64,000 bases of DNA, taken from NCBI GenBank assembly GCA_036514715.1, contig DATBWR010000001.1, forward strand, positions 8,644 to 72,643, given 5' to 3'. The notes beneath the pieces are model-generated. The model made no database searches. It worked only from the letters and a program-made list of their open reading frames with translations, and was not told where the DNA came from. This stretch comes from Candidatus Nanoarchaeia archaeon. GTDB lineage: Bacteria; Patescibacteriota; Microgenomatia; Woykebacterales; RBG-16-39-9b. Shown here in pieces: positions 805 through 2,258 of the stretch; the first letter of the stretch is position 1, and each line of letters opens with the position of its first letter. The translations under genes were made by a program, and so were the position numbers.

Positions 805-1854
805 ATGCCCTATTTGCAAAACTGGATTTTGCAGGGTAAAATAGCCCTCAAAGAAAAAGGATGGAGGAAGAAATTGCCCAAAAGGAGAGCAGATCTTCAG
901 GTCGTTGCCCACCGGATAGACGCGGCCATAAGATCTGGGAGAGTGGCCGCCCTGCCAATTTACCCTCTCAACTCCGATTGGAGAGGTCCTGGCAGATCAC
1001 CGACAGTAGTCCTCTTGCTTGAGAGCTTGAGGATACGGCTACCCCCGGTTTACCAAGATGGCCCGCGACGGTTTCGGGCTAAGTTCGAAAGGAGTTGGGA
1101 TAATCGTACTACCATTCCCAGAGCGGTTCTAAACAGCCGTTTCTTGTCAGTTGGAGCTTCGTCGCCTGATTACCTTTGGTTGAGAGCTGCCAGCCTTGAA
1201 CAAAGAAGAGAGGTTGGTGTCTTTACAGCAGCTGGAGGTCTGAAACGGCGGATCTACGAAGTAGTGGACGATCTGTCTCACAGTCTGCGCCAGGTGGTTC
1301 ACGTCCAAAGTCAGTACGAAAGAGAGATACGCTATCTCTCGGGCCTGCGGGTTCGTATGCAGGATCGGCTGCGCCAAGAAAGAGCTGGTATTGTCCAGCT
1401 GACTCTTCAGGAACGGGAAACGATTCGTCTCACTTTATTGGAAGCAGACAAAAGGTTAGCTGAAATAGACCACATTTTGGAAGACAGATCTGACCGAGGG
1501 TTTAGGTTGCAGTACTACTCTCGCCTCAGCAGTGTTCAGCTCTTTGAAATGGCTGAGAGTCTGGCGAACTTTCACGCTAGTGTGAGTCGGATGGCTAACC
1601 CAAACATGGAAGCTGTGCGCACTTACCTGACTGGTTTCGCCGACGACCTCTCTCTCTTCTCTAGTAGAGAGGTGCGGTTCTCTCTGATGAAAGCAGTGAG
1701 AACTCTTCGTCACATCGTGAGAGATCAGCTGGACAAGGAAAATCTTCTGCGGCTTCTTGACCGCGCTGTAGAAGACGTGAAATCTGGGGCAGTTTCACTG
1801 AGCCATTGGGCTGACAGTCTAACTGAGGAAGAAAGACTCTTGGCCCTTGCCTAA
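805..1854 (+). CDS. hypothetical protein, start uncertain; C-terminal ~210 aa helical and protein-like, N-terminal ~130 codons look like translated structured RNA
   Basis: A single open frame. Codon usage is CTG/CGC-rich, unlike neighbouring genes. The annotated ATG at 805 lies upstream of the promoter -10 element. A hairpin terminator follows the stop. Confidence 0.35.
   Translation: MPYLQNWILQGKIALKEKGWRKKLPKRRADLQVVAHRIDAAIRSGRVAALPIYPLNSDWRGPGRSPTVVLLLESLRIRLPPVYQDGPRRFRAKFERSWDNRTTIPRAVLNSRFLSVGASSPDYLWLRAASLEQRREVGVFTAAGGLKRRIYEVVDDLSHSLRQVVHVQSQYEREIRYLSGLRVRMQDRLRQERAGIVQLTLQERETIRLTLLEADKRLAEIDHILEDRSDRGFRLQYYSRLSSVQLFEMAESLANFHASVSRMANPNMEAVRTYLTGFADDLSLFSSREVRFSLMKAVRTLRHIVRDQLDKENLLRLLDRAVEDVKSGAVSLSHWADSLTEEERLLALA
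814..842 (+). promoter_or_regulatory. near-consensus sigma70 promoter TTGCAA-N17-TAAAAT overlapping an inverted repeat TTGCAAAA/TTTTGCAg
   Basis: Read directly from the sequence. It points into the GC-rich region and is followed by AAAAAGG and an ATG at 861. Confidence 0.4.
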
Positions 1855-1860
1855 CTACTT

Positions 1861-1898
1861 AACCGAAGATTCAACCTCTGGATCTTCGGTTTTCTTTG
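1861..1898 (+). terminator. rho-independent terminator (10-bp stem aaccgaagat/atcttcggtt followed by a T-run)
   Basis: Perfect inverted repeat followed by tttctttgcc, immediately after the stop at 1854. Confidence 0.55.
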
Positions 1899-1922
1899 CC
1901 TCAAGTTATACTACTATGAGAT

Positions 1923-1950
1923 TGACTTTTGAGTTCAAATGTGGTATAGT
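1923..1950 (+). promoter_or_regulatory. sigma70-like promoter TTGACT-N16-TATAGT upstream of the Zn-ribbon ORF
   Basis: Read directly. It is followed by SD AAAGGAG and a TTG start at 1978. Confidence 0.45.
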
Positions 1951-1977
1951 ATAAGGAACTAAGAAAGGAGCTAACAG

Positions 1978-2178
1978 TTGAACTCTCAGTCCCGCCCAAA
2001 GACAGTTCAACCTACTCCCAGAAGCATCTGCCCATTCTGCCAGCTGGAACTCAGCAGAAAAGATCTGTCTGGCCTGCAGATTGGCAAGTGCGAAAGGTGC
2101 CACAGGTCTTACACAAAGGAGAGTTGGGACGAAGCAAGTGCTATAGTTCAGGCCGCCAGAGAGTCTACCGTAAGGTAA
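1978..2178 (+). CDS. small zinc-ribbon protein (CxxC-N13-CxxC), function unknown
   Basis: 66 aa ORF with a TTG start 8 nt after AAAGGAG. It has four Cys in CPFC...CERC. It is GC-rich like the upstream islet. Confidence 0.4.
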   Translation: MNSQSRPKTVQPTPRSICPFCQLELSRKDLSGLQIGKCERCHRSYTKESWDEASAIVQAARESTVR

Positions 2179-2258
2179 ACTCAATGGCGGCCACTTCTTT
2201 GCTTATTTCACGTCGCACAATATTTGCCTTCCACCCTCTTTTAGATTAAAATTGAATT

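Follow-up and report, generated by a model that had tools for sequence, protein, structure and literature searches.

A GC-rich region beside a XerC/D gene read as a vertically inherited pair of protein-coding genes in a Patescibacteria-like genome

What does a region unusually rich in guanine and cytosine (GC), lying next to a gene for a XerC/D-type tyrosine recombinase, contain, and how did it come to be there? The question is raised by positions 805-2200 of a 64-kb stretch of contig DATBWR010000001.1, hereafter the window, by which the whole of the DNA that was analysed is meant. A sequence-only reading of this region had proposed a promoter firing into a structured non-coding RNA (ncRNA) or a long structured leader at about 880-1210, with a foreign effector gene and a small zinc-ribbon gene behind it, all acquired horizontally beside XerC/D. 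Most of the sequence features on which it drew were confirmed, yet our analysis leads to a different answer. With a probability of roughly 0.85, the region consists of two ordinary genes with sigma-70-type promoters, here called X and Z, which are vertically inherited within one lineage resembling the Candidate Phyla Radiation (CPR)/Patescibacteria, and it harbours no RNA element and no mobile cassette. The candidate ncRNA and the foreign islet are struck from the list.

The first line of evidence comes from the segment supposed to be RNA. A protein search with the 349-amino acid (aa) open reading frame (ORF) that opens at ATG 805 retrieved an identical product of 326 aa together with the homologues P0002 (65% identity) and P0003 (50%), each covering 93% of the query. 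Gene X, as delimited here, lies at 874-1854 on the forward strand, begins with TTG and encodes 326 aa; P0001-P0003 are its homologues from this search. The N-terminal 113 codons align without a gap to the 65% and 50% homologues. In codon alignments of the segment 874-1212, differences at the three codon positions number 43/26/66 between the window and the related locus L002 and 40/29/76 between the window and L001. Nonsynonymous divergence (pN) is 0.27-0.29 and synonymous divergence (pS) is 0.78-0.86, the latter being saturated, and the N-terminal part of X is constrained no less than its helical part. Close full-length homologues of X therefore display coding-type substitutions precisely over the N-terminal codons that had been assigned to RNA, an outcome that the sequence-only reading had itself named as fatal to its proposal.

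The predicted structure agrees with this pattern. When 28 sequences were supplied, AlphaFold modelled the whole of X with a predicted local distance difference test (pLDDT) value of 90.4 and a predicted template modelling (pTM) score of 0.78, with strands and helices over residues 1-131; residues 1-97, which were unmodelled or disordered in a run with 3 sequences, were settled by the 28-sequence run. Three domains can be distinguished in the model: a basic alpha/beta domain at residues 1-131 (874-1266), a long antiparallel helical hairpin at residues 134-239, and a helical bundle at residues 245-325. The translation had been described as rich in Arg and Pro, which is correct, these residues making up 25% of codons 30-135; the further description of the segment as not protein-like is contradicted by the coding substitution pattern and by the confidently predicted alpha/beta domain. 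Judged from the substitution pattern, segment 874-1212 is the beginning of an ordinary protein-coding gene and not an RNA element.

Searches for an RNA element in the same segment gave no signal above chance. The RNAfold energy of 845-1215 was -121.3 kcal/mol, compared with -117.3 +/- 6 kcal/mol for dinucleotide shuffles (z -0.66), and 27 of 100 shuffles were equally stable. Rfam 15, run over the whole window at gathering thresholds, returned tRNAs only. At E <= 10, the interval 700-2300 yielded three chance-level matches (E 2-6) and nothing relevant; two of them were antisense within the helical part of X, and the third, suhB at 843-894, fell over the leader and the start codon. Covariation and helix tests were carried out on four sequences, for which the consensus fold computed with alifold had a covariation term of just -0.19 kcal/mol. 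The inverted repeats pointed out earlier within about 880-1210 are present as such (890-904/923-937 and 964-974/976-986), but the AGATCT helix and the CCUCUC/GAGAGG hairpin have their central pairs in one of the four sequences, that of the window itself, a score that 180 of 500 shuffles equal. Moreover, the untranslated leader of X measures only about 25-30 nt, so that there is no room for a structured leader. A 51-aa ORF offered as an alternative (861-1016) actually extends over 861-1022 and encodes 53 aa; it was rejected, its frame being interrupted by stop codons in all three homologous loci.

The second line of evidence is gene order, which is kept between related loci down to about 30% identity in X. 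Divergently upstream of X lies a gene coding for a 190-aa YfbR-like HD phosphohydrolase (208-780, reverse strand; Pfam PF12917, E 6.8e-35), found in this position in the window and in L001, L002, L003, L004, L009/L010, L011, L013 and L015. X adjoins this HD gene in nine distinct loci, and the X-Z pair is located upstream of the gene for serine hydroxymethyltransferase (SHMT, glyA) in seven. The L009 locus comprises HD on the reverse strand, X, an 89-aa Cys-rich ORF, XerC, SHMT and gyrA on the reverse strand, and the window has the same order except for a histidine kinase gene (4571-6148) inserted between SHMT and gyrA. Between these two loci, the identity is about 34% for X, 56% for HD, 54.5% for SHMT and 78% for XerC; between the window and L011, it is 33% for X and 71% for HD. 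XerC itself is dispensable to the arrangement, as X, Z and SHMT occur without it in L001, L013, L015 and L016, and its conservation makes it look like a housekeeping gene.

A comparison of synteny, which might have revealed related genomes lacking the supposed islet, found X-Z at the same site in the related loci, and absence of the islet was not seen there. Direct repeats flanking the region were looked for and not found, and no tRNA gene lies closer than the one at 39.9 kb. From these comparisons, a conserved block can be recognised that is made up of the divergent HD phosphohydrolase gene, X, Z, sometimes XerC, and glyA; the HD gene is part of this block and stands outside any islet. The proposal of a horizontally acquired islet beside XerC/D does not survive the conserved order, the frequent lack of XerC and the failure to find flanking repeats. 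In L013, SHMT is split into two ORFs of 100 and 327 aa (4391-5746), pointing to a frameshift, to a pseudogene or to a fault in the assembly.

The composition of the region, which had suggested foreign origin, is indeed deviant. Positions 880-2180 have a GC content of 0.503 and rank at the top of 1254 sliding windows of 1.3 kb over the 64 kb (mean 0.426, standard deviation 0.02). The X ORF has a GC content of 0.51 and a third-position GC content (GC3) of 0.51, compared with 0.427 +/- 0.029 and 0.394 +/- 0.037 for the other ORFs of the window, and its codon use is atypical (scaled chi2 0.32 vs 0.108 +/- 0.042). The bias toward CTG and CGC codons reported earlier holds for CTG (0.28 vs 0.12) and fails for CGC (0.13 vs 0.22); the codons in excess in X are CTG, CTC, CGG and AGA, and its residues include 14% Arg and 2% Lys.

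In other genomes as well, X and Z exceed the neighbouring genes in GC. The GC3 of Z is 0.49-0.61 in six loci, against 0.27-0.43 for the neighbours, and for X the rise is seen in the window, L002, L004 and L012 but not in L001, L003, L009 or L011. Since the excess is common to homologous genes elsewhere, it is no mark of a recent transfer into this genome, and since synonymous sites are saturated between these genomes, an ancient transfer that was never ameliorated cannot explain it either. Part of the GC excess is due to the Arg-rich content of X; the GC3 excess goes beyond that explanation. Such a lasting GC and GC3 excess in vertically inherited genes could be worth following up. The window contains a second compositional outlier, an ORF of 280 aa at 54611-55453 on the reverse strand, whose GC (0.493) and GC3 (0.51) are like those of X.

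The signals around X are those of an ordinary gene. Its promoter (813-842, forward strand) consists of a palindromic -35 element, TTTGCAAA, a 17-nt spacer and the -10 element TAAAAT. The core TTGCAA-N17-TAAAAT at 814-842 had already been noticed in the sequence; it was recovered by a consensus promoter scan (5 sites found, 0.9 expected), and (T)TTGCAA(A)-N17-TAAAAT/TATAAT is kept in 8 of 9 homologous intergenic regions between HD and X. A Shine-Dalgarno sequence, GGAGG (863-867, forward strand), precedes TTG 874 by 6 nt, and motifs of the GGAG type are found ahead of the X starts in homologous loci too. Downstream of the gene, the intrinsic terminator that had been described at 1861-1898 (forward strand) was recognised again, with a stem of 13 pairs (1861-1891), a 5-nt loop and a T-rich tail; L002 carries a comparable hairpin and T-run after X. 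When the DNA downstream of X was aligned between loci, no conserved non-coding element emerged.

These signals also bear on the start codon. The NCBI records give X as 349 aa from ATG 805, a codon already held to be impossible as the start, and that judgement is borne out: ATG 805 lies upstream of the conserved -10 element, and the homologues align from TTG 874. They open with M-P/A-K-x-R-x-D-L, which in the window is encoded from TTG 874, and no further upstream extension of the X ORF is possible in L001, L005 and L011. X thus starts at TTG 874, and the deposited 349-aa form is probably 23 codons too long, so that the public start codon probably needs correcting.

The palindrome at 813-820 is suited as a -35 element for both divergent genes. 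On the reverse strand, a putative promoter of the HD gene (791-819) can be read as TTGCAA (819 to 814), a spacer of 17 nt and the -10 element TAGACT (796 to 791), followed after 10 nt by the HD start codon, ATG 780. The divergent geometry of window positions 781-842 is found again in L001 (5894-5960), L003, L009 and L015, where the -10 element is TATAAT, TAAAAT or TAATAT and stands 9-10 nt before the ATG. The promoters of X and HD apparently share their palindromic -35 element, and we infer from the short distance to the ATG that the HD mRNA is nearly leaderless. A palindromic -35 element apparently common to X and a putatively leaderless neighbour gene could be worth following up.

Gene Z (1978-2178, forward strand) begins 124 nt after the X stop codon on the same strand and encodes a 66-aa protein (pI 9.2) with a TTG start and a predicted zinc ribbon, CPFC-N16-CERC. 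The sequence-only reading had described a second promoter, a Shine-Dalgarno sequence, a TTG start and four cysteines, all of which were found; the spacing between the knuckles (C18-P-F-C21 and C38-E-R-C41) is 16 residues and not the 13 given there. The promoter of Z (1922-1950, forward strand), TTGACT-N17-(TG)TATAGT, was detected by the consensus scan with 10 of 12 matches, and promoters of the form TTGACA/TTGACT...TATAAT precede the small ORF in L001 and L002 as well. The Shine-Dalgarno sequence AAGGAG (1965-1970, forward strand) lies 7 nt before TTG 1978. An inverted repeat at 2151-2192 (forward strand), with 19-nt arms that are 84% complementary, extends over the Z stop codon and is followed by a T-rich stretch; the terminator scan left it uncalled, and a GC-rich hairpin with a T-run occupies the equivalent place in L001. 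It is possibly the terminator of Z.

The pairing of X with a small zinc-finger gene, perceived in the window, recurs: in at least ten related loci X has a Cys-rich ORF of 89-120 aa directly after it on its own strand, and every Z homologue looked up in the profile search sits behind an X gene. In the long forms, a cluster of cysteines near the N-terminus (MECxxCG...CxxC type) is joined by a basic linker to a CPxC...CxxC ribbon at the C-terminus; of the two Cys-bearing parts, the window form retains only the ribbon, and it shares with the longer forms the basic stretch ahead of it. Within the family, codon-position differences of 22/15/45, 17/10/39 and 18/13/51 were counted, with pN of 0.13-0.17 and pS of 0.44-0.56, the pattern of a coding sequence, and TTG starts are usual. 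The small Cys-rich ORF is not present after X in L008. Position and architecture mark the window Z as a probable shortened member of this fast-evolving Cys-rich family; the idea of a zinc-ribbon partner is supported in general and somewhat less secure for this genome. A small zinc-finger gene, often missed or placed on the wrong strand by gene callers, is thereby assigned to a conserved pair.

Two further observations concern Cys-rich ORFs. In L005, and equally in L006 and L007, tandem Cys-rich ORFs follow X at 1354-1530 (58 aa) and 1547-1867 (106 aa), and the 58-aa ORF gives sub-threshold B-box matches (E 0.006-0.008). In the window, the second-best match to the Z-family profile (E 0.22) is a 73-aa ORF at 25843-26064 on the reverse strand, which is either a small zinc-ribbon protein or a chance match.

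The public labels attached to these sequences, 'Candidatus Nanoarchaeia archaeon' and 'uncultured archaeon' (HEY4694355.1, QBM01806.1 and L003 = DASVHF010000041.1), name an archaeon. Gene content contradicts them: the window carries gyrA, gyrB, type IV pilus genes, a class A penicillin-binding protein (transglycosylase/transpeptidase) and RecG, and one relative has genes for EF-Ts and the ribosome recycling factor. On these genes, the content is bacterial and resembles that of CPR/Patescibacteria. The window also contains six tRNA genes within 2.5 kb at 60543-63024, namely Leu-TAA, Leu-CAG, Leu-GAG, Val-TAC, Phe-GAA and Pro-TGG.

An exhaustive profile search gathered 27 clusters into the X family, most of them of 310-345 aa and aligned from residue 1. 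One candidate, P0029 (735 aa, 10 matched stretches), was rejected as a relative of X, being a translated tandem repeat. Pfam, NCBIfam, PADLOC and PHROGs, searched with X, Z and all 28 family members, returned sub-threshold noise only, and a sequence-profile search of the PDB with X found designed coiled coils only, an effect of composition. On these searches, X is a member of a small unnamed protein family restricted to one lineage. Across the family, R139 does not vary at all, H143, R194 and R208 hardly vary, and many further Arg residues are conserved. From the positions of the predicted secondary structure, the two hairpin helices should bring R139 and H143 (first helix) opposite D204, R205 and R208 (second helix), at the base of the hairpin and beside the N-terminal domain.

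Several observations weigh against reading X and Z as an inherited functional pair. The neighbourhood is kept within one narrow lineage and may reflect shared ancestry and not functional coupling. No database annotation supplies a function for X. The window Z matched itself alone in a search of 5.8 billion proteins, its match to the Z-family profile (E 0.12, 8.2 bits) covers the C-terminal ribbon only and is statistically not significant, and it could be a decaying remnant.

As to function, X and Z may tentatively be seen as an undescribed two-protein module of ultra-small bacteria, acting as a new regulator or nucleic-acid-handling factor tied to deoxynucleotide salvage or to host/phage conflict, a possibility to which we give well under even odds. 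Such a module would combine a basic N-terminal domain lacking detectable structural relatives, a hairpin and bundle with an Arg/His cluster, and a rapidly evolving zinc-finger partner; it would be expressed from a promoter sharing its palindromic -35 element with the divergent leaderless gene for a deoxynucleoside monophosphate (dNMP) phosphohydrolase, and its lasting GC-rich coding sequence would reflect an additional constraint. With low confidence, we suggest more specifically that X might bind a polyanion, be it RNA, DNA or a phosphorylated ligand, and that Z would be its zinc-finger partner. The suggestion is based on the N-terminal domain, which has a pI of 11.5 and a net charge of +13 while the rest of the protein is near neutral, and on the conserved Arg and His residues: binding would take place through the Arg-rich domain and the conserved Arg/His cluster. 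X could then have a regulatory or structural role in the cytoplasm, perhaps linked to the adjacent deoxynucleotide and one-carbon genes. The neighbourhood includes the dNMP phosphohydrolase gene and glyA, in L004 genes for thymidylate synthase and a deoxynucleoside/thymidylate kinase, and DinB nearby; it may point to a link with deoxynucleotide metabolism, or merely to an inherited order.

Among the rival explanations, a role of X-Z in phage/host conflict fares best, and it is nonetheless unlikely. It would account for the rate of change, X diverging about twice as fast as its neighbours and Z faster still, with changing length and number of Cys residues, and it fits the atypical composition in several genomes and the restriction of the pair to one lineage. 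Against it, PADLOC and PHROGs gave only noise for the 28 members: PADLOC had none for X, two isolated matches at E 0.004-0.009 among the family members, and for Z LmuB alone (E 0.022). No recognisable enzymatic or effector domain was found, pN/pS is well under 1, and the module occupies the same site in all related loci, unlike variable defence islands.

A second and still less probable rival holds that 1978-2178 is no longer a functional protein gene in this genome and represents either what is left of a decaying Z or a small RNA expressed from the conserved strong promoter and terminator. The window Z lacks the N-terminal Cys cluster of the 89-120-aa forms and has no database match beyond itself, and in L002, the closest relative, the equivalent ORF is without two of the four ribbon Cys while the promoter is kept. 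Set against this, the window ORF is intact, has a good Shine-Dalgarno sequence at a proper place before a start codon usual in the family, keeps all four ribbon Cys and the basic stretch, ranks best of the 497 window ORFs against the Z-family profile, and has no Rfam match. The L001 form of Z is the one compared by BLASTP, and the match to the window Z has an E value of 0.079.

The helical part of X brings to mind a histidine phosphotransfer (Hpt)-like relay or adaptor working with the PAS histidine kinases encoded just downstream. This resemblance was considered and not adopted: neither in structure nor in sequence was there a specific match that included a phospho-accepting His motif, there is no Hpt motif and no Pfam match, and designed bundles score equally, which makes the similarity generic and the idea very improbable. 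Least credible of all is the horizontally acquired assembly of structured RNA, foreign effector and zinc-ribbon gene, for which the high GC, the atypical codon use, the inverted repeats and the closeness of a tyrosine recombinase gene (80 nt downstream from Z) would speak, and which founders on coding-type substitutions with zero indels over the segment, the confident protein model, the lack of fold stability, covariation and Rfam support, and a synteny in which XerC is dispensable and flanking repeats were not found.

Comparison with known systems helps to place the two inherited genes. With the riboswitches, ribozymes and structured leaders of Rfam, the locus has in common a near-consensus promoter ahead of a GC-rich sequence bearing inverted repeats; it differs in that the segment is translated and codon-periodic, has neither covariation, extra stability nor an Rfam match, and follows so short a leader. 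Genomic islets beside tyrosine recombinases likewise deviate in GC and codon use and have a recombinase gene adjacent. Here, in contrast, the XerC/D-type gene is conserved and is absent from several X-Z loci, X-Z is fixed between the HD gene and glyA, and direct repeats resembling attachment sites were not found.

The ribbon of Z, CxxC...CxxC, resembles those of the Zn_ribbon, DZR_2 and zf-B_box families of Pfam, and the longer forms add the N-terminal Cys cluster. The matches to DZR_2 (E 5.7e-4) and zf-B_box (E 8e-3) are weak and fall under the curated cut-offs, with no alignable homology to a named family; among the Pfam zinc-ribbon families, the best for Z were Prok-RING_1 and Zn_ribbon_TFIIB (E 0.015, 15-16 bits, against cut-offs of 22-29). 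In joining an extended antiparallel helical hairpin to a zinc finger of four Cys, the pair resembles the DksA/TraR factors, with their coiled-coil hairpin and C4 zinc finger, and the B-box/coiled-coil of TRIM proteins, a likeness that we take as a lead only and have not adopted. It differs in that the two elements are divided between X and Z, that X has further domains at both ends, and that there is no sequence match and no significant structural match.

A further parallel is with the lineage-restricted protein families of CPR/Patescibacteria (Meheust et al. 2019, Nat Commun, PMC6744442). X is alike in kind, being a small family from related uncultured bacteria with small genomes, without a Pfam or NCBIfam model, annotated as 'hypothetical protein' and held at a fixed genomic position. 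In addition, it comes with a zinc-finger partner gene and a promoter that is conserved. In this context (PMC6744442), the X-Z pair is the kind of 'dark' gene content that uncultured bacteria with reduced genomes typically carry.

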